Shown here piece by piece: positions 928 through 16,029 of a stretch of DNA of 50,883 nucleotides. How positions within the stretch are numbered: the first letter of the stretch is position 1; each line of letters opens with the position of its first letter. The DNA comes from Acidimicrobiales bacterium. GTDB lineage: Bacteria > Actinomycetota > Acidimicrobiia > Acidimicrobiales > VFJN01. A model generated the notes under the pieces. It saw only the letters and a list, made by a program, of their open reading frames with translations. It was not told the origin of the DNA and searched no databases. Location of the stretch: positions 1 through 50,883 of the forward strand of contig DASUQS010000047.1 in assembly GCA_036280455.1 (NCBI GenBank), written 5' to 3'. Position numbers and translations under genes: made by a program.

Positions 928-2232
928 TCACACCCGGTCAGGTGCAACAGCCACGAGGAGCGCGTAATTCCGCTTTCCCTTGCGCAGGAGGACGTAGCGC
1001 CCGTGGAGGACGTCGTCCACGCCCACGACCGCGTCGGCACCGACCTTCCGCCCGTTCACCGACACGGCGCCCTGCTCGATCGACCGACGGGCATCGCCCT
1101 TCGAGCTCGCCAGTCCGCTCTCGACGAGGAGGGGGACGAGGTCAGCTCCCTCCCCCAGCTCGCCGGCGGACGGGAGAGGTGCCGTCGGTACCTCGTCAGC
1201 CACCGCCGCCAGTGCCCCGGGCCCCGCCTCGAGCGGCGACCCGCCGAACAGCAGCGCGGCGGCCCCGGCGGCCGCGTCCGCCGCCTGGTCCCCATGGACC
1301 AGTGCGGTGACCTCGCAGGCCAACCTGCGTTGGCCGGCGCGCCGCTCGGGGTGCTCCAGGTGCTCGGCGGCGATCGCATCCACCTCGCCCATGGGGAGGA
1401 GCGTGAACTTCGCCAGGAACTCGCGCACCTGACGGTCGTCGATCTGCATCCAGTGCTGGAAGAACTGGTACGGGGTGGTGCGCACCGGATCGAGCCAGAT
1501 GCGGGCCCCGGTCGTCTTCCCCAGCTTCGAGCCGTCGGGCGCGGTGAGCAGCGGCCACGACAGCCCGTGGGCGGTGGCTCCCCGCACCCGGCGGATGAGA
1601 TCGATGCCCGACAGGATGTTGCCCCACTGATCGGACCCGCCGATCTGCATCTCGACGCCCTGGTCCTCGTGCAGGCGCAGGAAGTCGTGAGCCTGCAGCA
1701 GCATGTAGCTGAACTCCGTGTAGCTGATGCCGTGCTCGCTGGCGAGCCGCGCCTTCACCGACTCGCGCGCCAGCATCTGGTTGACCGTCACGTGCTTGCC
1801 CACGTCCCGCAGGAAGTCGAGGAGCGTCACCCCGACCGTCCAGTCCCGGTTGTCGACCAGCAGGGCACGCCCGTCGTCGAAGTCGAGGATGCGCGCCATC
1901 TGCGCCTTGATCGCCGCCACGTTGGTGCTGAGGGTGTCGTCGTCGAGGAGGTTGCGCTCCTCGGACCGGCCGCTCGGGTCGCCCACCATGCCGGTGGCGC
2001 CGCCGGCGAGCGCGACCGGGCGATGCCCGGCGTCCTGGAAGCGGCGGAGCACCAGCAGGCCGATCAGGTTGCCGATGTGCAGGCTGTCGGCCGTCGGGTC
2101 GCAGCCGTAGTAGAGGGAGATCGGTCCCTCGGCCAACCGGTCGGCGAGTGCCTGCAGGTCGGTGCTGTCGTGCACCAGGCCGCGGGCCTCGAGGTCGTCG
2201 AGGATGCTCACATCTGCCGTCACGGGTGACAT
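928..2232 (-). CDS. tyrS: Tyrosyl-tRNA synthetase
   Basis: Class I motifs HIGN (HIGH variant) and KLGKT (KMSKS variant) are present, with a C-terminal S4-like domain (...GRYVLLRKGKRNYALL). I chose the start at ATG 2232 (MSPVTADVSILDDLEARGL), because the ORF's upstream 47 codons look non-coding. Confidence 0.95.
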   Translation of the reverse strand: MSPVTADVSILDDLEARGLVHDSTDLQALADRLAEGPISLYYGCDPTADSLHIGNLIGLLVLRRFQDAGHRPVALAGGATGMVGDPSGRSEERNLLDDDTLSTNVAAIKAQMARILDFDDGRALLVDNRDWTVGVTLLDFLRDVGKHVTVNQMLARESVKARLASEHGISYTEFSYMLLQAHDFLRLHEDQGVEMQIGGSDQWGNILSGIDLIRRVRGATAHGLSWPLLTAPDGSKLGKTTGARIWLDPVRTTPYQFFQHWMQIDDRQVREFLAKFTLLPMGEVDAIAAEHLEHPERRAGQRRLACEVTALVHGDQAADAAAGAAALLFGGSPLEAGPGALAAVADEVPTAPLPSAGELGEGADLVPLLVESGLASSKGDARRSIEQGAVSVNGRKVGADAVVGVDDVLHGRYVLLRKGKRNYALLVAVAPDRV

Positions 2233-2362
2233 GGTCCCCGGCCCGGCCGCGACCGGTCCAGCGCGATCCTCCTCCCCCGTTCGCCCGTGGGCCTCCGTGC
2301 CCACGGAGGACGGGCCTCCCGACTGGACTCGACAGGCGCCCGACGGGGAGCCTGTGCAGGTG

Positions 2363-2926
2363 ATGACCGACACGCGACCCGCGGACGAGCCCGACGCGCC
2401 GGAGGGTCGGCGCTGGACGCCGGTGCGGGCCTTCCTCGCCGTCGTCGTGCTCTCCCTCGTGGCGATGTGGGTCTACGTGCTGTTCCTGGCGATCGGACCC
2501 GGCCGCCAGCCTCCGATCGACCGCCTCGAGGATCCCGCCTTCGCCGAGGCCGGCGAAGCCCGGTGCGCCGAGGCGCTCGAGGACGTCGAGGCCTTGCCCG
2601 TCGCCAACGAGTCGACCACGGCGGCCGAGCGGGCGGAGGTGCTCAGCCGGGCCGACGCCGTCTTCGCCGACATGCTCGACGACCTCGACGCCTCGGTCGA
2701 CCTGGCTCCCGCCGGCGATCAGCGGCGCCGGGCCACCGAGTGGCTGGCCGACTGGCGCACCTACCTCGCCGATCGCGAGGCCTTCGCCGACGCCCTGCGC
2801 GTCGACCCCGAGGCTCGGCTGCTGGTCTCCGAGAAGCCCGGCGAGGGTCGCCAGATCACCGGTTGGATCGACGAGTTCGCCAAGGCCAACCGCATGCCCT
2901 CCTGCATCACCCCCGTCGACGCCTGA
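2363..2926 (+). CDS. Hypothetical single-pass membrane protein, divergent from tyrS
   Basis: Starts at ATG 2363 (MTDTRPADEP...). It has one hydrophobic helix (AFLAVVVLSLVAMWVYVLFLAI), an acidic soluble domain and high GC3. No family recognised. Confidence 0.65.
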   Translation: MTDTRPADEPDAPEGRRWTPVRAFLAVVVLSLVAMWVYVLFLAIGPGRQPPIDRLEDPAFAEAGEARCAEALEDVEALPVANESTTAAERAEVLSRADAVFADMLDDLDASVDLAPAGDQRRRATEWLADWRTYLADREAFADALRVDPEARLLVSEKPGEGRQITGWIDEFAKANRMPSCITPVDA

Positions 2927-3025
2927 TCATCCGTCGACCACCAGGCTGAGCCCCTCGGGACTCCCATCAGGGGGCGACGAGCACGATCCGTCCGGGACGG
3001 CCCGGCAGCCCACACCGCGTCTCGG

Positions 3026-3646
3026 TCAGGCCCGCCCGCGCTCCCCCTCGATCTCGTCCAGGGCGGCCAGCGCCGCCCGCGCCATGCGCAGTGTGCCGTC
3101 GTCCACCTCGAGCTCGGGCAGCTCGTCGTAGCTCGCCCAGCGGAGCGCCAGCGACTCGTGGTTGCCGACCGGGACGGCGCCGGGCGGCGCGATCGCCAGG
3201 TAGCGCACGTCGAGGTGCAGGTGCGGCCCGTGGGGCGGGCCCACCTCGTGGATGTCGAGGTCGATGGCGGGCAGCGCCACCGCCAGGCCCGTCACGCCGG
3301 TCTCCTCGACGGCCTCGCGCCAGGCCACCCCCGGGAGGTTGGCATCGCCGTCGGCGTGCCCGCCCGGCTGGAACCACCGACCGAGCTTGGCGTGGAGCAT
3401 GAGGAGGAACCGTCGATCGGCCGGGTCGACGACCATCGCGGAGCCCGTGAGGTGACCGGGCTCGCACGTGCGTTCCAGCGCGTCGGCGTGGGCGTCGACG
3501 AAGGCCAGCATCTCGCGCCGGTGGCGCTCGTGGTCGGCGTCGCCCGGGCGAGCCGCCGCGATGTGGGCACGGGCGTCGACCAGGCGCGAGGACCGGTCCA
3601 GCGCCGCGCTCGGCGGCCGGTGGACGGCGAACGGCCCGGCGCTCAC
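3026..3646 (-). CDS. NUDIX hydrolase (206 aa)
   Basis: This is the C-terminal 206 codons of track ORF 3026..8344. The Nudix box is GGHADGDANLPGVAWREAVEETGV (3293-3364), with REAVEETGV matching REUxEExGU. The GTG start at 3646 overlaps the upstream TGA stop (3643-3645) as GTGA. Confidence 0.85.
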   Translation of the reverse strand: MSAGPFAVHRPPSAALDRSSRLVDARAHIAAARPGDADHERHRREMLAFVDAHADALERTCEPGHLTGSAMVVDPADRRFLLMLHAKLGRWFQPGGHADGDANLPGVAWREAVEETGVTGLAVALPAIDLDIHEVGPPHGPHLHLDVRYLAIAPPGAVPVGNHESLALRWASYDELPELEVDDGTLRMARAALAALDEIEGERGRA

Positions 3647-6600
3647 CCTCGATCCGCCGCGTCGAGGTGAGCGTCGCCCGCACCGGGGTGGAGGGGGTCG
3701 AGGCTGCGGCCGCCCCCGTTGCCGGACGCCGCCGGCGACGCGCCTGCCGGCTCCGCGGCGACCATCTCGGCGCCGGCTGTCGGAGCCACGGCCGTCTGGG
3801 TGCCAGCGGTCGGAGGAGGACTCGTCGGGGCGGGCGCCACGGCCGGCGCAGGCCCGGGGCGCAGCGCACCGAGCCGATCGCCGATGACCCCCAGCTGGGC
3901 GGCGATGCGGGCCACCGGGTCGGACCCGTCGCCCAACGCCTGCACCCGGGCGAACGCATTCGTGACCTCGGCCCACCGCGCCGCTTGCTCCGGCGTCGTG
4001 CGGCCGCGGAGCTCCGCCAGCTTCAGCAGGTTGTGCTCGGCGCCGGAGGTGAGCGTCTGCGCCTCGGACCGGTAGTGGTCGTCGAGCAGCGACTCGACCT
4101 CGGCGTCGGTCATGCCCGGCACGATCCGCTCCACCAGCTTGTTCATGTTGCGATAGCTGCCCTGCAGCAGGAACGGCGGCTCGGTGCGGAAGGCGGCGTC
4201 CTGGCCCGCCGACGCGATGTACGCCTGGTTGACCGCCATCACGACCCGCTGCACACGGCGCACGATGCGCAGAACCGACACCAGCTCGGCGAGCTCGACC
4301 GCGCTGTACGGGTGGCTCAGGCGATCGGCCGGCACCTCCTCGCCGTCTGCCATCCGGACGAGCAGGGCCACATCCGCCAGATCGCGCCCCGCCAAGGGGG
4401 CGAGCACCGGGTTGGCGGTCAGGGAGTTCTCGACGTAGCTGAGAGCGAAGAGGTCGTCCTGCCCGGTGAGCACGTCGCCGAGGTTGTGGACGTCGGCCCG
4501 GTTGGCCAGCATGTCCGGCACGCGGAAGCGTTGCCCCGATTCGGTGTACGGATTGCCCGCCATGCACACGGCGAAGCGCTTGCCCCGCAGGTCGTAGGTG
4601 CGGGTGCGGCCCGCCCACACGCCTTCCATGCGCCGCTGGGCATCGCACAACGAGATGAACTTCTGCAGCAGCTCCGGGCTCGTGTGCTGGATGTCGTCGA
4701 GGTAGAGCAGCACGTTGTTGCCCATCTCGAGGGCGACGTTGATCTTGTCGACCTCCTGGCGGGCCGTGGCGTCGGGGGCGTCCGCGGGATCGAGCGACGT
4801 CACCCCCGTGCCCAGCGCCGGCCCGTTGACCTTGACGAACACCAACCCGAGGCGGCTGGCCACGTACTCCATCAGGGTCGTCTTGCCGTAGCCCGGTGGT
4901 GACACGAGGAGCAGGAGGCCGCTCTGGTCGGTGCGCCGGCCCTCGCCGACGGTGCCGAGCTGACGGGCGAGGTTGGCGCCCACCAGCGGGAGCACCGCCT
5001 CGTCGACCAGGTGGTTGCGCACGAAGGTGGACATCACCTTGGGCCGCAGCTCGTCGAGGCGCAACGCGTGCCGGGCCCGGGCGAGCGCCTGCTCGCGGGC
5101 CGCCGTCCAGCGGCGGAAGCCGGGCACCGTGGTGCGACGGAACCGCGCGGTGCGCGCCAGCACCTCGTCGAGCCGCACGGCGAGCGCGCCGTCGACGACC
5201 CGGGGATGCTGGCCGACGAGCCCGGTGACCTGCACGGTCCGCAGCCCCGACGACGTCGCCCGGGGCACCGGCGCCGCGGTCGACGCCCCGACCGGATCGG
5301 CCGCGGCGGGGCCGGCGGACGCACCCGTGCCTCCCGTCGGGGTGCCACCCGCCGCCGGGTTCGCACCCGAGGACGTGGACGAGCGTCGCCGCGGCGAGGA
5401 CGGCGTTGGGACGACGGCGTCTGTGAGGACGAGGGCCGCCGCCTCGTCGACCTCGGTCGCCAGGGCGGCGAGCTCCGGGTCGTCGGTCGCGCCGAGGAGG
5501 CCGGCCAACCAGGCGTGGACGAGCTGCCAGCGGGCGGCCAGGCCGCCGGCCGGACCGTCGCCCGCGCCACCCACGGCCGCCAGGTCGTCGTCGAAGGCCC
5601 GGCGCTGGCCGCTGCGCTCGAGGTGAGCCCACAGCCCGTCGCGGAGGGCGACCGCCTGGGCGCTCGTCGCGAACTGCAGCGAGGGCCGGGCCAGCTCTTC
5701 GAACAGGTACGCCGCCGCGGCGGTCGCGTCGTCCGGCGCCACGTCGAGCCCTGCGCCGTCGGCGCCCAGCGCGGCGGCCAGGCCTGTCGCCATCTCCGCC
5801 TGGAGGGCGGGGATCGCGGGACCGGACCCGAAGCTGGCACGCAGCCGGGCCAGGCTGGCGGCCCGGTGGCGCCAGCCGACGGCCCTGGCGCCCGCGCCCT
5901 GCTGGGCCCAGAACAGGCAGGCCAGCGCCCGGGGCAAGGGCGGCCAGCGCAGGCGGTCGGCGGTCTCGGTCGCCAGGACCAGCTGGTGGAGGATGAGCGC
6001 CGCGTCGTGGTCGTGGACACCGCGCTCGTAGCCCTCGTCGTAGCGGTCGGCGGCGTACGTGCGCACGACGTCGAGGAGCGTGCCCTCGGCCCCGGCCGCC
6101 AGCAGCCTCTCGACCGACAGGTCGCCCGTCCGGGCCTCCGCGTCGGCCAGCAGCGCCGTCGCCAGGAACTCCGCCCGGTAGACCTCGGCGGTCTCCGACA
6201 CGAGCCGCTGGTCCCAGTGGGCCTCGGTGCCGGCCAGCTCGGGATCGTCGAGAGGCTGGCGGAAGTCGGTGCCCGTCACCGCCAGTTCGAGATGACCGTC
6301 GCGGGGCACGACGGTGAGCTCGAACGGCTCGGTGGTGACCGAGAACCGGTGCCCGCCCAGGCGGATGACCTCGGCGCCGTCCTCGAACAGGTCGCGGCGG
6401 TCGCGCAGCGTCCGGGCGGCCTCCTGGCGCGCCGCGGTGAGCCGCCCGTCGATCTCGTCGGCCCGCACCGCGTCGTCGAGCTCCCGCAGGCGCGTCGAGA
6501 GCGACCGCAGGCGCTCGACCATGGGGTCGGCGGCGAAGTAGGCGTTGACGTCGTCGGGCGAGTCGAGCTGGGCCGCCCGGCGGGCCACCGTGGCGAGAAC

Positions 6601-8925
6601 CCGCTCGGCGTTGGCCACGAGGCGGTCGGCGTCGCGCTGGCGCTCGTCGAGCATGGCCTGCTTGCGGGCCGTGAACGCCTCGTAGATCTCGTCGCGGCGA
6701 CCGGCCAGCTGCTCTGCGTGGGCGTCGTCGTCGCCGAAGCGCGCCTCGAGCCCTTCGACCTGGGCCAGGAGGCGGGCGAGCTGGTCGTCGCAGGCGGCGG
6801 GCGTGGCCGCCAGGCCCAGTCCGCTGCCCACGGCCTCGGCCAGCAGGGCGAGCTGCGCGCCGAACTCCGCCGCCCCCTCGGACCGTGCCAGGTCGCGGCG
6901 GCGCCCCTCCGCGGAGGAGCGGGCGCGGTTCACCCCGGCCAGCACCTCTGACACCGATTGGAGCACCCGCGTGCGGTCGCGGGCGTCGTCGATCTTCAGG
7001 CCGTCGATCACCTCGGTGACGAGCGCCATCTCGTCGGCCACCGCGGTCAGCCCGGCCGCGCCCTCCGCTGCGTCCGCGGCCGCGCCGGCGGCCCGCCCCT
7101 CGGCGTCGAGGGCGGCGACCCGCTCGTGGTACGGGTCGAACGCCCCCTCCGCGAGCACGAAGCCCACCATGTCGGCGGCGATCCCGTCGAAGGTCTCGGC
7201 GACGCGGGACTCGAGCGCCTCCACCCGGTCGAGGTCGACGTAGCGCAGGTCGCGCAGGGAGACGACCCGCCCGCGCAGGGTCCGCAGCCGCGCCAGCGAA
7301 TCGACGAACCGCGTCACCGAGTCGAGCTTGACGGCCGGAAGCTCGCGCAGGAGCACGCGCAGGTCGCCGTCGACCTGGTCGGCGGCCTCGCCGGCCTGTG
7401 CGCGCAGCGCCTCGACCTTCTCGAACTCGTCGATGACCAGCTCGGCCGTCGAGCGCAGCTCGTGCAAGGGCGTCGCGAGGTCGCCCACCTGAGGATCGCC
7501 CAACCAGTGGTGCGCATCCTGCATCCGGCCGATGCGGGCGACCAGGTCCTCGTACCCGGCGCGCGACGGGTCGGGGTTGGCGGCCAGCCGCTCGATCGAC
7601 ACCGCGTCGCTGACGGCCCGCACGAGCTCGGCGTTGCCGACGACCTCGAGGAACGACTCCCCCACCGGTGCGGCCGCCGCGTGGTCGTCGGTGGCGAACG
7701 GCGTGCGCCAGATCTGCAGCGGGTGGACGCGCGTGGGCTCCTCGCTCTCCGCCCGCAGCACGACCATCGTGCCGTCGTCGAAGATGCCGTAGCCGTGGCA
7801 GACGACCTGCTGGGCCACGTCCTTGCGGATCAGGTTGTACGGCAGCAGGTTGGTGCGCCCGGCCTCGCGCTCGTGGAACGCGTAGAGGACGTCCTCCCCG
7901 TTCGGCGCCCGGCGAGCTTCGACGAAGATCATCGAGTCGACGTCGCCTTCGAACGTCCGGTGCTCCCCGGACGCCAGCACGTAGCCGCCCGGGAAGATCA
8001 GCCCGTGGTCCTCCGGCAGCTGCTGGCAGGCGGCGCCGATCGCGTCGATGCGCTCGACCTGGCGGGTCCGCGTGTTGAACACGAGGTGGCGCCAGGTGTC
8101 CTCCTTGTACGGGCGGATGCGCAGGAGGATCAGCGGGCCGAGCCGGCAGTGGTGGATGTCGGCGTCGGCGAGGCCCTGGGTGGGCTGGTCGACGGGCTCG
8201 GACCAGATCCCCTCCCCCGTCTCGGTGTTGTTCTCGACCTTGATGGTGAGGTCGCCACCGATCGTCTCGACGAACAGCTCGTCGCCGATGCTGACGTGCG
8301 GGTACCGGCCGGTCACGTGGTCGTCGCGGGTCGTCTCGACCCACTCGAAGTCGTGCGCGGACGGGAACACGTGCTCGCGCTCGCCCCGGTCGTCGATGTA
8401 GCGCACCGTGCCGTCGCGCTCGAGGGCCCAGCGGAACACCTTGAGGTCGGCGGCGGCCCGGCCCGTCTGGAAGACCGCCAACAGGCGACCCTCCAACCGG
8501 CGCAGCTGCACGAGACGGGTGTCCTTGTAGTAGCGGAACACCTCGCCGAAGTCGTGGACGAAGGCCGGGTCGGCCAGGAAGTTGGCGGGGTCGCCCGCGT
8601 CCACGTCGTGCAGCTCGTAGGAACCGCCGTCGTTCGCCTCCAGCCGGTGGAGGCTCAGCACGTCGGCGACCGCGGTCTCGGACCGCAGTCCGATGAAGAC
8701 GTTGTAGCCGAACAGCAGCAGCGGGCCGACGGTGACCGCGTCGCGCGGGACGCAGTTGTTGCGCGTGCGGATGCGGGCGGCACCGACGAGCGCCAGATCG
8801 GTGGATCCGAAGGTCTCGTGGCGGGCGTCGTTGAGACGACGGGCCCGCGCGGCGAGCTCGCGCGCCTGGTCGCCCAGGCGCGCCCGCAGCAGCTCGTAGG
8901 TGCCGCCCTCGGCGGGGGTGCTCAC
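3643..8925 (-). CDS. Giant AAA+ ATPase (1,760 aa). Members of this family are usually given the generic label 'DNA repair ATPase' (DUF3686-type N-terminus, from my recollection).
   Basis: I found a single P-loop, LVSPPGYGKTTL (Walker A GYGKTT, 4876-4893), and a Walker B LLYLDD (4693-4710). The N-terminal ~420 aa are beta-rich, followed by a long Ala/Arg/Glu/Leu helical middle. A Ser/Pro/Gly/Thr linker lies at ~5242-5409, and the C-terminal tail is Pro/Ala-rich. The GTG start at 8925 overlaps the flotillin stop as GTGA. Confidence 0.85.
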   Translation of the reverse strand: MSTPAEGGTYELLRARLGDQARELAARARRLNDARHETFGSTDLALVGAARIRTRNNCVPRDAVTVGPLLLFGYNVFIGLRSETAVADVLSLHRLEANDGGSYELHDVDAGDPANFLADPAFVHDFGEVFRYYKDTRLVQLRRLEGRLLAVFQTGRAAADLKVFRWALERDGTVRYIDDRGEREHVFPSAHDFEWVETTRDDHVTGRYPHVSIGDELFVETIGGDLTIKVENNTETGEGIWSEPVDQPTQGLADADIHHCRLGPLILLRIRPYKEDTWRHLVFNTRTRQVERIDAIGAACQQLPEDHGLIFPGGYVLASGEHRTFEGDVDSMIFVEARRAPNGEDVLYAFHEREAGRTNLLPYNLIRKDVAQQVVCHGYGIFDDGTMVVLRAESEEPTRVHPLQIWRTPFATDDHAAAAPVGESFLEVVGNAELVRAVSDAVSIERLAANPDPSRAGYEDLVARIGRMQDAHHWLGDPQVGDLATPLHELRSTAELVIDEFEKVEALRAQAGEAADQVDGDLRVLLRELPAVKLDSVTRFVDSLARLRTLRGRVVSLRDLRYVDLDRVEALESRVAETFDGIAADMVGFVLAEGAFDPYHERVAALDAEGRAAGAAADAAEGAAGLTAVADEMALVTEVIDGLKIDDARDRTRVLQSVSEVLAGVNRARSSAEGRRRDLARSEGAAEFGAQLALLAEAVGSGLGLAATPAACDDQLARLLAQVEGLEARFGDDDAHAEQLAGRRDEIYEAFTARKQAMLDERQRDADRLVANAERVLATVARRAAQLDSPDDVNAYFAADPMVERLRSLSTRLRELDDAVRADEIDGRLTAARQEAARTLRDRRDLFEDGAEVIRLGGHRFSVTTEPFELTVVPRDGHLELAVTGTDFRQPLDDPELAGTEAHWDQRLVSETAEVYRAEFLATALLADAEARTGDLSVERLLAAGAEGTLLDVVRTYAADRYDEGYERGVHDHDAALILHQLVLATETADRLRWPPLPRALACLFWAQQGAGARAVGWRHRAASLARLRASFGSGPAIPALQAEMATGLAAALGADGAGLDVAPDDATAAAAYLFEELARPSLQFATSAQAVALRDGLWAHLERSGQRRAFDDDLAAVGGAGDGPAGGLAARWQLVHAWLAGLLGATDDPELAALATEVDEAAALVLTDAVVPTPSSPRRRSSTSSGANPAAGGTPTGGTGASAGPAAADPVGASTAAPVPRATSSGLRTVQVTGLVGQHPRVVDGALAVRLDEVLARTARFRRTTVPGFRRWTAAREQALARARHALRLDELRPKVMSTFVRNHLVDEAVLPLVGANLARQLGTVGEGRRTDQSGLLLLVSPPGYGKTTLMEYVASRLGLVFVKVNGPALGTGVTSLDPADAPDATARQEVDKINVALEMGNNVLLYLDDIQHTSPELLQKFISLCDAQRRMEGVWAGRTRTYDLRGKRFAVCMAGNPYTESGQRFRVPDMLANRADVHNLGDVLTGQDDLFALSYVENSLTANPVLAPLAGRDLADVALLVRMADGEEVPADRLSHPYSAVELAELVSVLRIVRRVQRVVMAVNQAYIASAGQDAAFRTEPPFLLQGSYRNMNKLVERIVPGMTDAEVESLLDDHYRSEAQTLTSGAEHNLLKLAELRGRTTPEQAARWAEVTNAFARVQALGDGSDPVARIAAQLGVIGDRLGALRPGPAPAVAPAPTSPPPTAGTQTAVAPTAGAEMVAAEPAGASPAASGNGGGRSLDPLHPGAGDAHLDAADRG

Positions 8926-10985
8926 CGGCCGGCGATGTCGGCGACCCGGACCTCGTCGAGGCCGAGCGCCTTGGCCTCGGCGAGGAGCTTGGAGAGCTTC
9001 TCGCCGCCGCCGTTGCCGTCGGCCACGATGAGCCTGGTCAGCAGCGCCGTCAGGGTGAGGTCGCGCAGGTCGGCCGTGCTGGTGCCGCCGAGCAGCGATC
9101 GCAGGTCGCCCGGCAGGTCACGCGACCCGTCGAGGTAGCCCCCGAGCAGCATCTGCGCCGTCTGGCTGTGCTCGATGGCGCCGTCGACCGCCTTGCCCAT
9201 CGTGATCGCGCCGGCCAGCCGGTCGAAGAACACCGAGTCGCCACCGATGATGTCGATGTCGGCCTTCTCGAGGCCCTTGGCCAGCACCTCGGCCTGGCTC
9301 TGGGCGACCGATCGCCGGGCCTCGATCTCCGAGAGCTGGACGTCGCGCCCGGCCTCGATGCGCAGGCGGTACTCCTCGTGGGAGCGGCTGGCCTCGTCGA
9401 GTGCCCCCATGGCGGCGGCCTTGTCGGTGAGGCCCTCGGCCTCGCCGCGCAGCCGGGCAGCGATGGCGTCGCCCTCGGCCAGCCCCAGCTCACGCGCGAC
9501 GGTGGCCTCGGCCTCGCCCTGCACCTGGCGGGCCGCGGCGTCGGCGTGCTTGACCCGCGCCTCGGCCTGGCCCAGCTTCTCGACGGCGTCGGCCTCGCGC
9601 TCGCGCACCTCCACCTCGGCCAGGCCCGGTGCCGCCGTCTCGGCCCGGACACCCTCGGCCAAGCGGATCTTCGCCTTGGCCTCCAGGTCGGCAGCGGCGA
9701 GCTCGGCCTCGGCCAGCGCCAGGCGCTCGCCCGCCTTGTGCGACGCGGCGGCCTCGGCGGCCTCGGCCGCCTTGATGTCCTTGACCAGGCCCTCCTGCGC
9801 CTCGGCCTCCGCCGCGATGATGGCGGACTCCTTCAACCGGTTGGCCTCCTCGACCGCCTGGACCCGCTTGATCGCCTCCTCCTGCTCGACCACGGTCTTC
9901 TCGACGACGACGCGCTCGCGGACGACCTCGGCGATGTTGCGCTTCTCGACCTCGACCTCGCGGTCCTTCGCGATCGTGTTGAGCTCGACCTCGCGGTCGC
10001 GGGCGATGACCTCGAGCATGCGGTCCTTCTCGATGCGCTCGCGCTCGACCGCCACCACCCGGTCGCGGTTGAGCGTGGCCACCGCCACCTCGCGCTCGAG
10101 GTTCTCCTGCTGGACGGCGACCTGCTGCGCGGTGGTGAGGCGGGCCGTCTCGCTCTTCAGGTTCTCCTCGGCCTGCACGCGCAGGATCTCGGCGCCCTCG
10201 CGGGCCTTGACCGTCTCGACCTCGCGGTTCGCCCGGGCCTCGGCGTCGGCCTGCTGGCGCTCGAGCTCGAGGATGGCCTCGGTCGCCTCGACGTTCTGCT
10301 TGGTGATCTGCTTGCGCTCGGTGTTCTGGAACTCGTTGGTGAGCACCGACTCCAGCGCCGTCAGCTCGGTGATCTTGCGGATGCCCTGGGCGTCGAGGAT
10401 GTTCTTCGGGTCGAGGTTGGTGATCGGGGTCTGCTCGAGGAAGTCGATGGCGCAGTCCTCGAGCACGTAGCCGTTCAGGTCGGTGCCGATGACGGCCACG
10501 ATCGCGTCGCGGAACTCGTTGCGCTTCGTGTAGAGGTCGACGAAGTCGAGCTGCTTGCCGACCGTCTTGAGGGCCTCCGCGAACTTGGCGTTGAACAGCT
10601 CGTCGAGCGTGCGCTGGTCGGACGCCCGGGCGCAGCCGATCGACTGGGCCACCTTGATGACGTCGTCGGAGGTCTTGTTGACCTTGACGAAGAACGTCGT
10701 CTTGATGTCGGCCCGGATGTTGTCGCGGCAGATCAGGCCCTCGGTGCCGCGGCGATCGATGTCGATCGTCTTGACCGAGATGTCCATGACCTCGGCCTTG
10801 TGGATGATGGGCATCACCACCTGACCGGTGAAGGTCACCTTGACCGAGCGCATCGTGCTCACGATGAGCGCCTTGCCCTGCTCCACCTTGCGGTACAGCC
10901 GCGACACCATGAGCAGCGCGCCCACACCCAACAGGACGAGGACCGCGACCACCACGACGATGCCGGTGATCAGTACAGAAGACAT
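8922..10985 (-). CDS. SPFH/Band-7 flotillin-family membrane protein (YqiK/FloT-like, 687 aa)
   Basis: It has an N-terminal TM helix (ITGIVVVVAVLVLLGVGALLMV) and an SPFH core (ALIVSTMRSVKVTFTG...IDIDRRGTEGLICRDNIRADIK...). A ~350-aa Ala/Glu/Arg coiled-coil follows. An SD-like GGGAGC lies upstream of ATG 10985. Confidence 0.9.
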   Translation of the reverse strand: MSSVLITGIVVVVAVLVLLGVGALLMVSRLYRKVEQGKALIVSTMRSVKVTFTGQVVMPIIHKAEVMDISVKTIDIDRRGTEGLICRDNIRADIKTTFFVKVNKTSDDVIKVAQSIGCARASDQRTLDELFNAKFAEALKTVGKQLDFVDLYTKRNEFRDAIVAVIGTDLNGYVLEDCAIDFLEQTPITNLDPKNILDAQGIRKITELTALESVLTNEFQNTERKQITKQNVEATEAILELERQQADAEARANREVETVKAREGAEILRVQAEENLKSETARLTTAQQVAVQQENLEREVAVATLNRDRVVAVERERIEKDRMLEVIARDREVELNTIAKDREVEVEKRNIAEVVRERVVVEKTVVEQEEAIKRVQAVEEANRLKESAIIAAEAEAQEGLVKDIKAAEAAEAAASHKAGERLALAEAELAAADLEAKAKIRLAEGVRAETAAPGLAEVEVREREADAVEKLGQAEARVKHADAAARQVQGEAEATVARELGLAEGDAIAARLRGEAEGLTDKAAAMGALDEASRSHEEYRLRIEAGRDVQLSEIEARRSVAQSQAEVLAKGLEKADIDIIGGDSVFFDRLAGAITMGKAVDGAIEHSQTAQMLLGGYLDGSRDLPGDLRSLLGGTSTADLRDLTLTALLTRLIVADGNGGGEKLSKLLAEAKALGLDEVRVADIAGR

Positions 10986-11010
10986 CTAGTGCTCCCTAGC
11001 TGGCTGTCGT

Positions 11011-11769
11011 TCAGGAGAGGCCGTCTGCGCCGGCCTCGAGCGCCTCGACCGGGCACACGAGGAAGACCTCGGCCGCCGGGTCGTAGTCGAAGATCAACGC
11101 CTGCTCGCCACGGGCGAACGAGGCGGAGGCGTGCCCGTCGGCGTCGGGTGGCACCCGTACCTGGACGAGCACGGTCGCACCGGACGGATCGGCGGCCTCG
11201 GCCTGGCCGAAGCTCGTGCTGACCCCCGCGGTGCGGATGGTGCACGTGCGGCCGACGAAGGCCTGGTTGCTCTCGGCCTCCGTCGTGACGAACAGGCGCC
11301 CGAGCGGCCGGGCGAGCACCGACGCGCCCAGCGAGCCGGCGACGAGCGCCACGGCGATGACGACCAGGCCGGCGAGCAGCCGGACGGTCGGGTCGACGTC
11401 CCAGCTGTCGGCCGCGGCGGTGGCCACGAGGGCGACCAGCCACCCGAACACCACGACGAGGCTGGCCGCGAGCGTGACGGGCACACCGGCCAGACCCAAG
11501 GCCTGCCACCATCCCGCCAACAGTCCACCGTCGGTCGCGGCGTCGCCCGCTCCGTCGCCCCCGGCATCGCCGTGAGCGCCGACGCCGTCACCGACGTCGA
11601 GGCCGCCGTCCACGTCGACGCCGTCGACACCGTCGACACCCAGGTCACCGAACAGGTCGATGTCGAGAGCCCCGAGCACCACGGCGAGCCAGTAGGCGAG
11701 GACGGGCGCGAGCAGCACGGTGAAGACCACCGCCGGAAAACCGAGAGCCGCATCGAAGAACCCGCCCAT
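11011..11769 (-). CDS. NfeD/YqiJ-like (DUF1449-type) membrane protein with a C-terminal OB-like domain
   Basis: Several TM helices and an acidic Gly/Asp-rich loop (DGVDGVDVDGGLDVGDG) are present. The C-terminal soluble segment (FVGRTCTIRTAGVSTSFGQAEA...VLVQVRV) resembles an NfeD OB fold. It sits immediately upstream of the flotillin gene, as in yqiJ-yqiK and yuaF-floT pairs. An alternative GTG start exists at 11805. Confidence 0.7.
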   Translation of the reverse strand: MGGFFDAALGFPAVVFTVLLAPVLAYWLAVVLGALDIDLFGDLGVDGVDGVDVDGGLDVGDGVGAHGDAGGDGAGDAATDGGLLAGWWQALGLAGVPVTLAASLVVVFGWLVALVATAAADSWDVDPTVRLLAGLVVIAVALVAGSLGASVLARPLGRLFVTTEAESNQAFVGRTCTIRTAGVSTSFGQAEAADPSGATVLVQVRVPPDADGHASASFARGEQALIFDYDPAAEVFLVCPVEALEAGADGLS

Positions 11770-11837
11770 GCCTGGCGCCGACGCTACCTGCCACCGCGCC
11801 ACCACGAATCGCGGCCGGGGGAGGTGTCATCCACCTG

Positions 11838-12587
11838 TCACGCACCGGGCGCGGAGGGCGGCGACACACCCCGCAGCGCGGCCGTACCCGACACGTTGGG
11901 GTCGCCGGGGACGCACCACCGCCAGGGATGCTCGGCACCGGCGGTGAGGCCGATGCGGGTGGTCTGGTGGGGTCGGGCGGGCGGCGGCGTGCCGTCGTCG
12001 GCCAGCCACACGCCACGGTCGCCGCGCACGAGGTCGGCGCCGTCGAACGACCCGTCGAGCCCGAACGCCTGGCACAGCTTGGCGGGACCGCTGCACAGGT
12101 CGCGGTCGCGCCGCGCCCGCGGCCGGGCCGCGCGCATGGCCTCGACACCGGCCACCGGGGCCAGCGCCCGTAGGAGCACCGCCACGCCCTCGCCGTCGTC
12201 GCCGCACACGACGTTGGCGCACCAGTGCATCCCGTAGGAGAAGTACACGTACAGGCCACCCGGCGGGCCGAACATCGTGCGGTTCCGGGGCGTCATCCCC
12301 CGGAACGCGTGGCTGCCCGGATCGGCCGCGCCGCAGTACGCCTCGACCTCGACGATCCGCCCGACGCGCAGCCCGCCACCGTCCTTCCCGACAGCTCCAG
12401 CGCCCGCGTCGGCCTCATCTGCCTCGACCTCCGGGTCGGCCCGGTCGTCCCAGCGGACCAGCAGCTTGTTGAGGAGGTCGGGAGCGACCGCCCGCGAATC
12501 CCGTCGCAGGAACGAGCGGTCGACGACGGCACCGAACGCCGGCGGTCGCCCACCCGAGGACGGACCGGCCGCCGACCGGCCCGTCAT
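11838..12587 (-). CDS. mpg: DNA-3-methyladenine glycosylase (AAG/Mpg family)
   Basis: Contains GRIVEVEAYCGAADPGSHAFRGMTPRNRTMFGPPGGLYVYFSYGMHWCANVV, typical of the Mpg family. The ATG at 12587 overlaps the upstream stop as ATGA. Confidence 0.85.
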   Translation of the reverse strand: MTGRSAAGPSSGGRPPAFGAVVDRSFLRRDSRAVAPDLLNKLLVRWDDRADPEVEADEADAGAGAVGKDGGGLRVGRIVEVEAYCGAADPGSHAFRGMTPRNRTMFGPPGGLYVYFSYGMHWCANVVCGDDGEGVAVLLRALAPVAGVEAMRAARPRARRDRDLCSGPAKLCQAFGLDGSFDGADLVRGDRGVWLADDGTPPPARPHQTTRIGLTAGAEHPWRWCVPGDPNVSGTAALRGVSPPSAPGA

Positions 12588-12973
12588 GACAGCGCCGACC
12601 GCACCGCCTCGGGCACCGGGGTCGGCTCGATCGTTCCCGGCGTGACCGCCACGTAGGTCACGACCGCGGTGAACACGGGCTGCTCGTCGACCGAGCCCTC
12701 GAACCCGATGTCGAAGCTCGTGCGCCCCCACCGGCGGGCTCCGACGTCGATCGCCAGCACGTCGCCGAAGCCGGCGCTTCCGTGCCACGTGAGGTCGGCC
12801 CGCTTGAGCACCATGTCGACCGCGCCCGAGCTGTGGTAGTCGTCGCCGAGCACGGCCCGGAACCACCCGTCGCACGCCTCGTCGACGTAGGTCAGGTAGT
12901 GGGCGTTGAAGGCGTGGCGCTGCATGTCCACCTCGCCGTAGCGGATGCGGATCTCGTGGCGGTACAGGCTCAC
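12584..12973 (-). CDS. Acyl-CoA thioesterase, 4HBT/YbgC-like hotdog fold (129 aa)
   Basis: This is the C-terminal part of track ORF 12584..14011. The sequence VSLYRHEIRIRYGEVDMQRHAFNAHYLTYVDEA... matches the hotdog thioesterase N-terminal pattern. The GTG at 12973 overlaps the argH stop as GTGA. Confidence 0.8.
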   Translation of the reverse strand: MSLYRHEIRIRYGEVDMQRHAFNAHYLTYVDEACDGWFRAVLGDDYHSSGAVDMVLKRADLTWHGSAGFGDVLAIDVGARRWGRTSFDIGFEGSVDEQPVFTAVVTYVAVTPGTIEPTPVPEAVRSALS

Positions 12974-14367
12974 CGGGCGTCTCCGGCGGCGCCGATGCGT
13001 TCGGCGTCGGTGTCGAGGCGGCGTGCGAACCGCTCGACCTGCACCGCCACCGGGTCGGGACCGGCGCCGCCCGGCGTGGTGCGCCGGGTCACCGGTCGTC
13101 CCGGTTCGAGCAGGGCAGCGCCGTCGACCCCCAGAGCCGGATGGGCCTCGACCAGCTCGGCGAGCGGCACCCGTCGCTCCAGGCTGTCGCGCACCAACCC
13201 GCCGACGAGGGCGTGGGCGTCGCGGAACGGCGTGCCGCGCTCGACCAGCAGCTCCGCCAGGTCGGTGGCCGCGGCATAGGGAGAGTCGGCCGCCTGCTGC
13301 ATGCGGTCGACGTCGAAGACCAGCGTGCCGTAGAGCCCGGCCATGGCGGTGAGCGCGAGCGCCATCTGGTCGACGGCGTCGAACAACGGCTCCTTGTCCT
13401 CCTGCAGGTCGCGGTTGTAACTGAGCGGCAGGCCCTTCAGCGTGGCCAGGATGCCGGTCAGGTCGCCGATCACCCGGCCCGCCTTGCCGCGGGCCAGCTC
13501 GGCGATGTCGGGGTTCTTCTTCTGGGGCAGCATCGACGAACCGGTGGAGTAGGCGTCGTCCAGCCGGGCGAAGCCGAACTCGTCGGTCGACCAGAGGATG
13601 ACCTCCTCGCCCATGCGCGACAGGTGGATGGCCAGCATGCTCAGGGCGAACAGCGCCTCGGCCACGAAGTCGCGGTCGCTCACCGCGTCGAGGCTGTTCT
13701 CGAAGCGGGCGGCGAAGCCGAGGTCCTCGGCCGTGCCGTCCGGGTCGAGCGGCAGCGACGATCCGGCCAGCGCCCCGGCGCCGAGAGGCGACACGTCGAG
13801 CCGGCGGCGGCAGTCGAGCAGCCGGTCGACGTCCCGGGCGAGCGCCCAGCCATGCGCGAGCAGGTGGTGCGCCAGCGACACCGGCTGCGCCCGCTGCAGA
13901 TGGGTGTACCCGGGCAGGTAGGCAGGCCCCGCCTCCCCGGCCCGGTCGAGCAGGGTGCGCTGCAGCGTGACGACGCGCCGGGCGATCTCGCCCAGCTCGC
14001 GCCGGGTCCACAGCCGCAGGTCGGTCGCCACCTGGTCGTTGCGGCTGCGGCCCGTGTGCAGCTTCGCCCCGGGCGGACCGGCGAGCGCGGTGACCCGGCG
14101 CTCGATGGCGGTGTGGATGTCCTCGTCGGTCGGCTCGAAGGCGAACTCGCCGGTGCGGAGCTCGTCCTCGACACGGTCGAGGGCGGCGAGCACCACCCCC
14201 GACTCGTCGTCGCTGAGGATGCCCGCCCGTGTCAGGCCCCGGACATGGGCGCGGCTCCCGGCGAGATCATCCGCCGCCAGCCGCCGGTCGTAGTCGAGGC
14301 TGACCGTGAAGGCGAGCAGCTCGGCCGCCGGCCCGCCCTCGAACCGCCCGTGCCAGAGCGTGCTCAT
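12970..14367 (-). CDS. argH: Argininosuccinate lyase
   Basis: Begins MSTLWHGRFEGGPAAELLAF and carries the fumarate-lyase signature GSSMLPQKKNPD. The start is placed at ATG 14367. Confidence 0.95.
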   Translation of the reverse strand: MSTLWHGRFEGGPAAELLAFTVSLDYDRRLAADDLAGSRAHVRGLTRAGILSDDESGVVLAALDRVEDELRTGEFAFEPTDEDIHTAIERRVTALAGPPGAKLHTGRSRNDQVATDLRLWTRRELGEIARRVVTLQRTLLDRAGEAGPAYLPGYTHLQRAQPVSLAHHLLAHGWALARDVDRLLDCRRRLDVSPLGAGALAGSSLPLDPDGTAEDLGFAARFENSLDAVSDRDFVAEALFALSMLAIHLSRMGEEVILWSTDEFGFARLDDAYSTGSSMLPQKKNPDIAELARGKAGRVIGDLTGILATLKGLPLSYNRDLQEDKEPLFDAVDQMALALTAMAGLYGTLVFDVDRMQQAADSPYAAATDLAELLVERGTPFRDAHALVGGLVRDSLERRVPLAELVEAHPALGVDGAALLEPGRPVTRRTTPGGAGPDPVAVQVERFARRLDTDAERIGAAGDAR

Positions 14368-14569
14368 CGGCCCCTCCCCGATCCGCTGTCGGCCGGCACC
14401 ACTCGTGTCGCCATCGGTCTGCTTCCTTCGTCTCGTCGTGAACGTTCGTGCGCGGCCCCGGACGACCGGCGCCACCGCGGCGGGGCACGAACCCGGCCGG
14501 CGTGTCTGCTCGGATGTGGGTCCCCCGCGCGGATGCGAGGTCGGTGGTCTGGGCGTCAGGTCCGCGAGA

Positions 14570-15130
14570 TCATCGCAGGCCGGCCAACTCGGCCAGCACG
14601 TCCGCCATCGCTGCTCCGCTGGTGCCCTCGGCGACGATCACGACCAGCGTGTCGTCACCGGCCACGGTACCCAGCACGTCCGGCAGGCCCGAACGGTCGA
14701 GGGCCGAGGCGACCACGTGCGCGGACCCCGGCGGCGTGCGCAGCACGACCAGGTTGGCCGACTGCGCCACCTCGACCACCCACTCGCTGAACACGCGGCG
14801 GAGGTGGTCCTCGGGCGCCCGCTGCTGCGAGGGCAGCTCGGGGATGGCGTACACCGTCTCGCCGCCACCGACCCGCACCTTGATGGCGCCGAGGTCCTCC
14901 AGGTCGCGCGACACGGTCGCCTGCGTGGCGGCGACGTCCTCGGCCGCCAGCAGCTCGACCAGCTGGCCCTGGCTCGTCACCGAGTGGTCGGACAGCAGGC
15001 GGGCGATGCGATGCTGGCGTTGCGGCTTGGCGAGCGTGCGCGGCGCGGCGTCGTCGCCTGGAGACGACCCGGCGCCGTCCCGCGGTGCGGTGGCCTCGCC
15101 GGACCGGCTGTCGGTCGACGCCTCGGTCAC
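14570..15130 (-). CDS. argR: Arginine repressor
   Basis: The winged-helix segment is RQHRIARLLSDHSVTSQGQLVELLAAEDVAATQATVSRDLEDLGA, and the C-terminal oligomerisation domain contains GTVAGDDTLVVI. The GTG at 15130 overlaps the argF stop as GTGA. Confidence 0.9.
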   Translation of the reverse strand: MTEASTDSRSGEATAPRDGAGSSPGDDAAPRTLAKPQRQHRIARLLSDHSVTSQGQLVELLAAEDVAATQATVSRDLEDLGAIKVRVGGGETVYAIPELPSQQRAPEDHLRRVFSEWVVEVAQSANLVVLRTPPGSAHVVASALDRSGLPDVLGTVAGDDTLVVIVAEGTSGAAMADVLAELAGLR

Positions 15131-16029
15131 CGGTCGACCTCCTCGAGCAGCCACGACAGGAGGCCGCGGACGCTGTGCAGGCGGTTGTGCGCCTGCGCGA
15201 ACACGACGCTCTGGGCACCGTCGACGACCGACGCCGCCACCTCCTCGCCCCGGTGGGCGGGCAGGCAGTGCATGAAGACCGCCCCGGGGGCGGCGGTGGC
15301 CATGACCCGGTCGTCGACCTGGAAGCCCTCGAACGCCCGGTTGCGGGTCTCGGCCTCGTCCTCCTGGCCCATCGAGGCCCACACGTCGGTGTGCACCGCG
15401 GTCGCGCCCGCCGCGGCCTCGTCGGGCCGGCTGGTCACCATCGGCTCGCCGCCGAGCGCCCGCAGCCGGTCGAGGTCGGCATCGGTGGGGCCGTAACCCG
15501 GTGGGCAGGCGAGATGGACCTTCATGCCGACCATCGTGGCGCCGAGCGCCAGCGACCGGGCCACGTTGTTGAAGTCGCCGATCCACGCCACCGTGGCGCC
15601 TGCCAGGTCGCCCTGGGTCTGCCGCATCGTGACCAGATCGGCGAGCGCCTGGCACGGGTGACCACGGTCGGACAGGAGGTTGACGACCGGGATGGTGGCG
15701 GCGGCCGCCAGCTCCTCGAGCAGCGTGTGGTCGTAGACGCGGGCGCCGAGTGCGGCGTGGTAGCCCGACAGCACCCGGGCGGTGTCGGCGGTCGACTCGC
15801 GCTCCCCGATGGACACCTCGTCGCGGCGGAACGTGACCGGATGGCCCCCGAGCTGCACGACCGCCACCTCGCACGAATGCCGCGTGCGCAGCGACGGCTT
15901 CTCGAAGTAGAGGCCGACGGTGCGGTCGGCGAGCGGTCGCGACATCGGGGGTGCGGCCGCCCGGCGCAAGACCTCGTCCAGCTCGGCCGGGGTCAGGTCG
16001 TCGATCTCGAGGAAGTGGCGCAGGCTCAC
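15127..16029 (-). CDS. argF: Ornithine carbamoyltransferase
   Basis: Motifs FEKPSLRTR, HPCQALAD and HCLPAHRGEE are present. The GTG at 16029 overlaps the argD stop as GTGA. Confidence 0.95.
   Translation of the reverse strand: MSLRHFLEIDDLTPAELDEVLRRAAAPPMSRPLADRTVGLYFEKPSLRTRHSCEVAVVQLGGHPVTFRRDEVSIGERESTADTARVLSGYHAALGARVYDHTLLEELAAAATIPVVNLLSDRGHPCQALADLVTMRQTQGDLAGATVAWIGDFNNVARSLALGATMVGMKVHLACPPGYGPTDADLDRLRALGGEPMVTSRPDEAAAGATAVHTDVWASMGQEDEAETRNRAFEGFQVDDRVMATAAPGAVFMHCLPAHRGEEVAASVVDGAQSVVFAQAHNRLHSVRGLLSWLLEEVDR

Follow-up and report, generated by a model that had tools for sequence, protein, structure and literature searches.

Proteins of the SPFH group form membrane-attached cages (HflK/C, QmcA–YbbJ, and the flotillin dome) to which NfeD partners bind, and the cages of HflK/C enclose the AAA+ protease FtsH. 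The locus considered here, with genes for a small membrane protein of the NfeD type, a flotillin, and a very large ATPase, is located in a stretch of 50,883 nucleotides (nt) from an Acidimicrobiales bacterium (contig DASUQS010000047.1; about 73% G+C), which in its whole length is referred to as the window. Gene sets of this kind have been already described. In the study of Ravi, Anantharaman, Aravind, Gennaro et al. (mSystems 2024; PMC11237479) an operon was delineated that consists of a CesT/Tir-like chaperone, PspA, and three further proteins, one of which is a YqiJ/YuaF protein with three transmembrane (TM) segments, with phospholipase D (PLD) sometimes added. In the same study the abbreviated form YqiJ/YuaF – band-7/flotillin – AAA+ ATPase was found to be widely distributed and considered as possibly using PspA encoded elsewhere, and chaperone-like assembly roles were proposed.

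In Pseudomonas aeruginosa the long form of the operon appears to be bacABCDEF (Macé et al. 2008, PMC2587700; Front Microbiol 2024, PMC10948618), where reverse transcription PCR detected a transcript across all five junctions (PMC10948618) and a sigma-54 promoter was proposed (PMC2587700; PMC10948618). Mutants in bacA and PA3731 (bacB, the PspA homologue) were defective in biofilm, rhamnolipid, swarming, and virulence (PMC2587700; PMC10948618), and in the bacA mutant all five partner proteins were increased 6- to 13-fold according to proteomics (PMC10948618). Two products of the operon were further characterized as a short NfeD (PA14_16160) and flotillin PaFlo3 (PA14_16180) (PMC13086221); the ATPase is mentioned neither in the 2026 P. 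aeruginosa SPFH paper nor in Hinderhofer 2009. The P. aeruginosa locus of our own sample (L089) has the order DUF2170–PspA_IM30–213 aa–688 aa–1746 aa ATPase–PLDc_2 with yaeQ, recJ, and an M4 protease downstream, and according to gene order and domain content we infer it to be bacABCDEF (PA14_16140–16200 / PA3732–PA3727). The ATPase homologue cluster named from this species contains 3,222 sequences at 90% identity.

Judged by sequence and gene order, three genes of the window appear to be the abbreviated form of this known and widespread operon rather than a new four-gene system. The features concerned are as follows.

Positions 11011 to 11769, minus strand: YqiJ/YuaF-like small membrane protein of 252 residues, homologue of BacC (PA3730), by TM count, hhalign, tblastn, and gene context.
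Positions 8922 to 10985, minus strand: YqiK/FloT-type flotillin of 687 residues, homologue of BacD (PA3729 / PaFlo3), by Band_7, BLASTP, and TM segment.
Positions 3643 to 8925, minus strand: giant soluble ATPase of 1,760 residues, homologue of BacE (PA3728), by Pfam DUF3686, DUF7902, and AAA/AAA_5.
Positions 3026 to 3646, minus strand: NUDIX hydrolase of 206 residues, a resident neighbour, by PF00293 (E = 3e-8).

With a probability of about 0.6 we read the locus as an operon of a YqiJ-like protein, a YqiK-type flotillin, and a remodelling ATPase, which would constitute a membrane-stress scaffold and has been inserted beside a bystander NUDIX gene. The identification of the locus as this operon is very probable, while docking of the ATPase on flotillin with ATP-driven remodelling is a tentative mechanism with a chance close to, though short of, even. 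An earlier interpretation of the window made from its letters only, further referred to as the sequence-only reading, presented the genes as a four-gene module of unknown function and knew of no mechanism to link the ATPase to flotillin microdomains; the linkage of ATPase and flotillin had been already published (PMC11237479).

Four consecutive open reading frames (ORFs) of the minus strand (11011–11805, 8922–10985, 3643–8925, and 3026–3646) are separated by minimal junctions, which were read directly in the sequence. The TGA of the YqiJ-like gene (11013–11011) is followed after 25 nt by the flotillin ATG (10985), preceded by an AGGGAG Shine-Dalgarno sequence, and both the flotillin stop with the ATPase start (8925–8922) and the ATPase stop with the NUDIX start (3646–3643) overlap in a GTGA. 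The coordinates, the gap, and the two overlaps given by the sequence-only reading were all reproduced, and its four protein labels were correct according to Pfam, BLASTP, and hhalign. Only the start of the first gene had to be moved from GTG 11805 to ATG 11769, most likely the true start in view of the alignment of 33 homologues, which begin from that methionine.

The conservation of the operon was estimated by scanning one genome per GTDB species and taking the best 80 of at least 571 confirmed relatives with flanks of 10 kb. These 80 loci span Actinomycetota, Myxococcota, Acidobacteriota, many Gammaproteobacteria, and one metagenome-assembled genome (MAG) of Clostridia. In 78 of them flotillin precedes the ATPase on the same strand, the contigs of the other two being cut at the ATPase start (tblastn), and was directly adjacent in at least 76; a YqiJ-like gene directly preceded flotillin in 66 (tblastn). 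When all stop-to-stop ORFs of at least 80 residues in all flanks were clustered without supervision, the only families common to several lineages were the ATPase (80 loci), flotillin (78), and the YqiJ-like protein (69), the remaining large clusters being alternative-frame shadows of these three genes. Thus, YqiJ-like protein, flotillin, and ATPase, adjacent and co-directional in this order in the window and in 66–78 of the 80 loci, are co-inherited in no fewer than four phyla and in the Clostridia MAG. The identities of ATPase and flotillin to those of the window covary (r = 0.84 over 74 loci, to which shared phylogeny contributes), which fits inheritance as a unit. Adjacency of the three genes is far above chance, which is not the case for NUDIX. 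The synteny of the ATPase with an SPFH/NfeD-type pair across phyla, on which the sequence-only reading had staked its proposal beforehand, therefore held, with flotillin in 78 of 80 loci.

The spacing between flotillin and ATPase varies among the loci with a median of about 100 nt, and therefore the start/stop overlap is not a general feature of the operon. In one Myxococcales MAG (L042, 3557–10001) about 6.4 kb separates flotillin from the ATPase and encodes on the same strand three envelope or surface proteins, namely, OmpA with TSP3 repeats, a DUF11 protein, and a laminin-G-like protein. The long form was confined to Gammaproteobacteria among the 80 loci, where 14 loci have DUF2170 and 12 have PspA upstream, and 8 have PLD downstream. 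By tblastn the window contains no homologue of BacA (DUF2170) or BacB (PspA), the upstream gene being mpg, and no homologue of BacF (PLD/HKD) was found in the window, where the downstream gene is NUDIX.

The latter gene was counted by the sequence-only reading as the fourth component of the module, and the GTGA junctions were taken as a sign of stoichiometric co-expression. On this assumption the NUDIX enzyme would be made at a fixed ratio with the ATPase and would cleave a linked nucleotide signal or substrate; indeed, the overlap is real, the arrangement is kept in a metagenomic contig with a 94%-identical ATPase, and co-transcription is plausible. However, the NUDIX of the window had no homologue in any of the 80 loci (tblastn), and any ORF with a NUDIX box within 10 kb was found in one locus only, on the opposite strand at a distance of about 9.5 kb. 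The ATPase is not followed by NUDIX in relatives with ATPase identities of 80%, 77%, and 66%; among the relatives only the 94% twin has it. The own homologues of this NUDIX are Acidimicrobiales proteins of about 200 residues. Its surroundings include the following features.

Positions 11838 to 12875, minus strand: Mpg, methylpurine-DNA glycosylase, upstream border of the insertion (Pur_DNA_glyco, E = 1.6e-60).
Positions 3646 to 3849, minus strand: C-terminal tail of the ATPase, about 65 residues rich in Pro/Ala, its final TGA overlapping the NUDIX start, by comparison of homologues.
Positions 2363 to 2926, plus strand: conserved hypothetical protein of 187 residues, nearly identical to a 188-residue protein of L090.

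In three long Acidimicrobiales contigs which lack the module (L090–L092) the genes run as argCJBDFR(G)H, (thioesterase), mpg, (enoyl-CoA hydratase), NUDIX, the 188-residue gene on the other strand, and tyrS, and in each of them the NUDIX start overlaps by the same GTGA (9001–9004) the stop of Mpg or enoyl-CoA hydratase. Since the same overlap exists in genomes without the module, it is uninformative on stoichiometric co-expression with the ATPase, and by sequence comparison it appears to be an inherited property of the start site of the resident gene itself. In the window the corresponding array (928–17229) comprises tyrS, the 187-residue hypothetical gene, NUDIX, the three-gene module, mpg, argH, argR, and argF, and Mpg remains upstream of the module in relatives with 77–94% ATPase identity. 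This arrangement is most simply explained by insertion of the three-gene operon into an arg–tyrS array, between mpg and NUDIX. After insertion the ATPase frame would have run on through the tail to a TGA already present inside the NUDIX start; this unconserved tail, through which alone the ATPase reaches the GTGA, occurs in the window and in its 94% twin (P0001) but not in the next homologues (P0002–P0004) or in more distant ones. The tail-bearing ATPases are the same only two cases in which NUDIX follows. According to these facts the four-gene module is largely refuted by synteny, and we give it very little credence.

With regard to the NUDIX protein itself, its box GHADGDANLPGVAWREAVEETGV at residues 95–117 (nt 3296–3364) has an intact REUXEE core and alanine in place of the first glutamate (GX5E), and the protein otherwise has the fold and the GX5EX7REUXEEXGU box of NUDIX hydrolases. 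The 187/188-residue gene occupies the same place between NUDIX and tyrS in L090–L092 and L084 and is always found there in related genomes; its product has one hydrophobic stretch and no Pfam match. The context at 928–17229 is a housekeeping array kept in Acidimicrobiales contigs without the module. A sigma-54 promoter was not identified at the window operon; the promoter/terminator scan was uninformative at 73% G+C. The ORF 3026–8344 of the minus strand (1,772 residues) was rejected as an alternative-frame artefact of high G+C overlapping the real genes; further long artefacts of this kind lie over real genes at 6958–9138 and 9168–11222 of the plus strand, and such frames recur across loci as shadow families in ORF clustering.

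The YqiJ-like protein has three hydrophobic segments arranged as an N-terminal TM, an acidic variable linker, two TMs, and a C-terminal β-rich (NfeD-C/OB-like) domain. Pfam, including its YqiJ and NfeD models, gave no relevant match for this protein or for 32 homologues, the whole-protein scan with NCBIfam likewise gave nothing, and the profile search of PDB returned only noise. The family profile compared with E. coli YqiJ by hhalign gave a probability of 89% (E = 2e-6), the match covering TM segments two and three and the C-terminal β domain, and tblastn found 28% identity to P. aeruginosa BacC (E = 5e-13). These features are those of the YqiJ/YuaF-type protein with three TM segments, and the assignment of the first gene to the YqiJ type is thus based on profile–profile comparison together with context.

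The second protein possesses an N-terminal TM (its single hydrophobic segment, residues 1–31), an SPFH/Band-7 domain, a long coiled coil rich in Ala/Glu, and a C-terminal region of the flotillin type. No match was obtained when the whole protein was scanned with Pfam and NCBIfam, nor with the Pfam "Flot" C-terminal model, while Band_7 was detected (E = 1e-11) when residues 1–195 were scanned alone; probably the full-length protein escapes hmmscan because of its biased coiled coil. It is 28% identical to E. coli YqiK over 497 residues (E = 9e-36, BLASTP) and 49% identical to P. aeruginosa BacD (E = 1e-160), so that Band_7, YqiK likeness, the N-terminal TM, and BacD likeness agree in indicating the flotillin of the YqiJ–flotillin–AAA+ operon. 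In the C-terminal region of the ATPase-linked flotillins an H-E-E-x-R motif is invariant (HEEYRLRIE in the window, residues 536–540, nt 9366–9380), and it is absent from E. coli YqiK, which has no ATPase partner. A unique C-terminal docking domain of the ATPase-linked flotillins was considered and rejected, the region being a divergent ordinary flotillin C-terminus with a variable tail. Precomputed Pfam annotation was absent for both membrane proteins in every contig examined (the window and L081–L089), and therefore domain-based neighbourhood screens would miss the operon.

The third and largest product, the ATPase, belongs to a family which at 90% identity comprises over 6,000 clusters. Its sequence is about 55% identical from Actinomycetota to Acidobacteriota and Myxococcota, and its identity to the P. 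aeruginosa protein (P0207) is 46% in the N-terminal and 57% in the C-terminal part. When 1.84 billion proteins are clustered at 50%, no more than 735 representatives of the N-terminal domain remain, and the full-length ones measure 1,600–1,930 residues. Pfam assigned DUF3686 to residues 23–473 (E = 2.5e-197), DUF7902 to residues 595–677 (E = 2.6e-23), and AAA/AAA_5 to residues 1338–1462. The protein has a single Walker A (SPPGYGKT, which begins with serine) and no hydrophobic or TM segment, in agreement with the sequence-only reading of a soluble AAA+ protein with one P-loop. AlphaFold2 models built with a 73-sequence alignment divide it as follows.

Positions 7507 to 8859, minus strand: residues 23–473, N-terminal helix and β-propeller (DUF3686), by Pfam, AlphaFold2, and Foldseek.
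Positions 5509 to 7488, minus strand: residues 480–1139, helical/coiled-coil region (DUF7902 at 595–677), β element (870–891), and helical domain (917–1139), by AlphaFold2 and Pfam.
Positions 3856 to 5253, minus strand: residues 1225–1690, single AAA+ module and C-terminal helical domains, by AlphaFold2, Foldseek, and motifs.

The N-terminal model (residues 1–1140; mean predicted local distance difference test score, pLDDT, 83.5) contains a helix at 9–39, a β-propeller at 45–407, long helices and coiled coil at 425–847, and the small β element and helical domain listed above, with conserved patches of the family alignment at residues 480–1139. An unconserved low-complexity linker (residues about 1165–1224) leads to the AAA+ module, modelled over residues 1225–1700 with a mean pLDDT of 84.9. 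The latter includes Walker A at 1342–1349, Walker B LLYLDD (D1410, D1411), sensor-1 N1458, a candidate arginine finger R1476, and a β-hairpin before sensor 1, which connects helix 3 with strand 4; the residues of these motifs do not vary among 14–73 homologues and are located at the expected strand ends of the model. In Walker B (residues 1406–1411, nt 4693–4710) both aspartates are invariant in 73 homologues, in contrast to the usual hhhhDE. Together with the α-β-α core and helical lid these motifs make up the full AAA+ set, and DUF3686, AlphaFold2, and Foldseek combine in one protein a propeller, a coiled coil, and AAA+.

Foldseek matched the N-terminal model to the generic propellers of Vps11, Vps18, Elp1, and prolyl oligopeptidase and to dynein-stalk-like helices, all with low TM-scores, from which no function is deduced; a "protocoatomer-like" kinship suggested by Vps11, Vps18, clathrin, and nucleoporin matches was dropped at TM-scores of about 0.1. 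For the AAA+ module the best matches were RuvB, NorQ/CbbQ (MoxR), and MCM (E about 1e-7; probability 1.00 for RuvB, NorQ, and MCM; modest TM-scores), and PDB sequence searches with the ATPase gave only P-loop-level matches (Cdc48, NVL, and RuvB). According to the models the C-terminal module is predicted to be a genuine AAA+ fold without a close relative among the solved families and possibly a member of the pre-sensor-1-hairpin group.

The name "DNA repair ATPase" carried by this family in NCBI and Pfam would imply that the protein acts in DNA repair and that mpg in the window and recJ in P. aeruginosa reflect DNA metabolism. Apart from the name, this view draws on the presence of RuvB and MCM among the best AAA+ matches, on Mpg directly upstream in the window, and on RecJ two genes downstream of the operon in P. 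aeruginosa. On the other hand, none of the 80 loci yielded a homologue of Mpg, the conserved partners are two membrane proteins and nothing else, and Pfam, NCBIfam, and fold searches detected no DNA-binding or nuclease domain. The RuvB/MCM likeness is of the generic AAA+ kind, with low TM-scores equalled by the MoxR-type NorQ and CbbQ, and full-text literature gave no match for DUF3686, PF12458, or "DNA repair ATPase" together with flotillin. We consider a role in DNA repair highly improbable, and for the label, called homology-free by the sequence-only reading, no support was found in domains, repair-gene linkage, or literature. The name may have come from the proximity of recJ (L089, 13260–16357) or from the RuvB-like P-loop region.

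Another possibility is an anti-phage or conflict system, in which the scaffold senses infection and the NTPase is the effector or switch, acting with PLD in Proteobacteria or with NUDIX here. PA3728–PA3732 were up-regulated in all phage-infected P. aeruginosa samples by RNA sequencing (PMC12041424), some proteobacterial versions include an HKD/PLD-family hydrolase, and giant ATPases are common in defence systems. However, classical Psp envelope-stress genes are likewise induced by phage, and PADLOC-DB gave only a 29-residue P-loop match to IetA (E = 0.0018). The context in the window is arginine biosynthesis, mpg, and tyrS instead of a defence island, and the cluster of 3,222 P. aeruginosa sequences suggests a core-like gene. 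Moreover, unlike fast-evolving and patchy defence genes, the ATPase keeps its high identity across phyla and is co-inherited with flotillin. Thus, of the two functions between which the sequence-only reading had wavered, membrane stress is favoured, while defence, with nothing further in PADLOC and with housekeeping surroundings, is regarded as improbable.

Returning to the membrane-stress operon, TM segments are present only in the two small proteins of the trio (YqiJ-like and flotillin) and not in the ATPase, and in one phylum the trio belongs to a co-transcribed and co-regulated PspA operon that responds to envelope-type stresses. The following sequence of events can be proposed. Flotillin, together with its YqiJ partner, would build up an SPFH scaffold or cage at the cytoplasmic side of the membrane, on which the ATPase would dock via its propeller and the arm formed by its coiled coil, probably in the form of an AAA+ ring. 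ATP would then be used to assemble, disassemble, or remodel the flotillin lattice, PspA, or a held client during membrane stress, in parallel to FtsH with HflK/C or Vps4 with ESCRT-III; NUDIX would play no part. In a stronger version the DUF3686 protein would be a dedicated mechano-enzyme for bacterial flotillin lattices, a ring-forming AAA+ motor whose propeller and coiled-coil arm grip the flotillin (or PspA/ESCRT-III) assembly and drive its disassembly or remodelling. This version is possible but rather doubtful; if true, flotillin cages would have in this protein their bacterial equivalent of Vps4 or FtsH, widespread across phyla.

Alternatively, the ATPase may be a client or cargo concentrated by the flotillin scaffold, for example, a chaperone or unfoldase for damaged membrane proteins. 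The enclosure of FtsH by HflK/C cages is a precedent for such an arrangement. The chaperone-like assembly roles proposed by Ravi et al. (PMC11237479) point in this direction, as does the stabilization of unfolded proteins by S. aureus FloA–NfeD, a finding cited in PMC13086221. However, no protease or substrate-binding domain was recognised in the ATPase. Synteny is compatible with both the client and the remodelling models, and the former is held to be unlikely.

Several points weigh against the remodelling operon as we read it. The contact of the ATPase with flotillin is a presumed one, and with DD instead of DE in Walker B hydrolysis may be slow or switch-like. The Foldseek TM-scores are low, and therefore the AAA+ clade and the oligomeric state can be named only tentatively. 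A tblastn test, which is a weak one for this purpose, detected no homologue of PspA within the 50-kb window, and the link to PspA in this organism is therefore by analogy. The published bac phenotypes belong to bacA and bacB mutants, with none for the ATPase gene bacE (PMC2587700; PMC10948618). Finally, NUDIX may well be co-transcribed with the ATPase in the genome of the window and in its 94% twin, so that a functional link limited to these two, though improbable, is conceivable.

In summary, the locus can be regarded as settled in its identity, a three-gene membrane-stress operon known from comparative genomics, with an experimentally tractable version in P. aeruginosa. To the published description the present analysis adds the synteny count over 80 loci, confident domain models of the ATPase, and evidence that the "DNA repair" name is unfounded. 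It also supplies a worked example of how a start/stop overlap inherited from a resident gene creates a false impression of operon membership. The biochemical question of how a 190-kDa AAA+ protein acts on a flotillin scaffold has been already posed in the literature and is testable in P. aeruginosa, Proteus, and Myxococcus.

Compared with known systems, the window shares with the abbreviated operon of Ravi et al. all three components, co-directional and adjacent, and differs in that its copy sits in an arg–mpg–NUDIX–tyrS array, abuts NUDIX by the 4-nt overlap, and encodes an ATPase with an extra unconserved C-terminal tail. P. aeruginosa bacABCDEF, for which a stress/envelope reading is also appropriate, has the same gene order, BacC, BacD, and BacE being 28%, 49%, and 46–57% identical to the window proteins, whereas the window is without bacA (DUF2170, CesT-like), bacB (PspA), and bacF (PLD). 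The E. coli YqiJ–YqiK and B. subtilis YuaF (NfeD2)–FloT operons resemble the window in the succession of an NfeD-type small membrane protein and a flotillin but have no ATPase gene, and the ATPase-linked flotillins are longer than YqiK and bear the invariant H-E-E-x-R. With HflK/C–FtsH and ESCRT-III–Vps4 the likeness is a functional analogy only, that of a membrane SPFH cage or polymer served by a dedicated AAA+ machine; PDB sequence and Foldseek searches found no homology beyond the AAA+ fold. In contrast to these two enzymes, of which the ATPase has neither the protease nor the MIT domain, it represents a distinct DUF3686 family in which the AAA+ module is combined with a propeller and a coiled coil.

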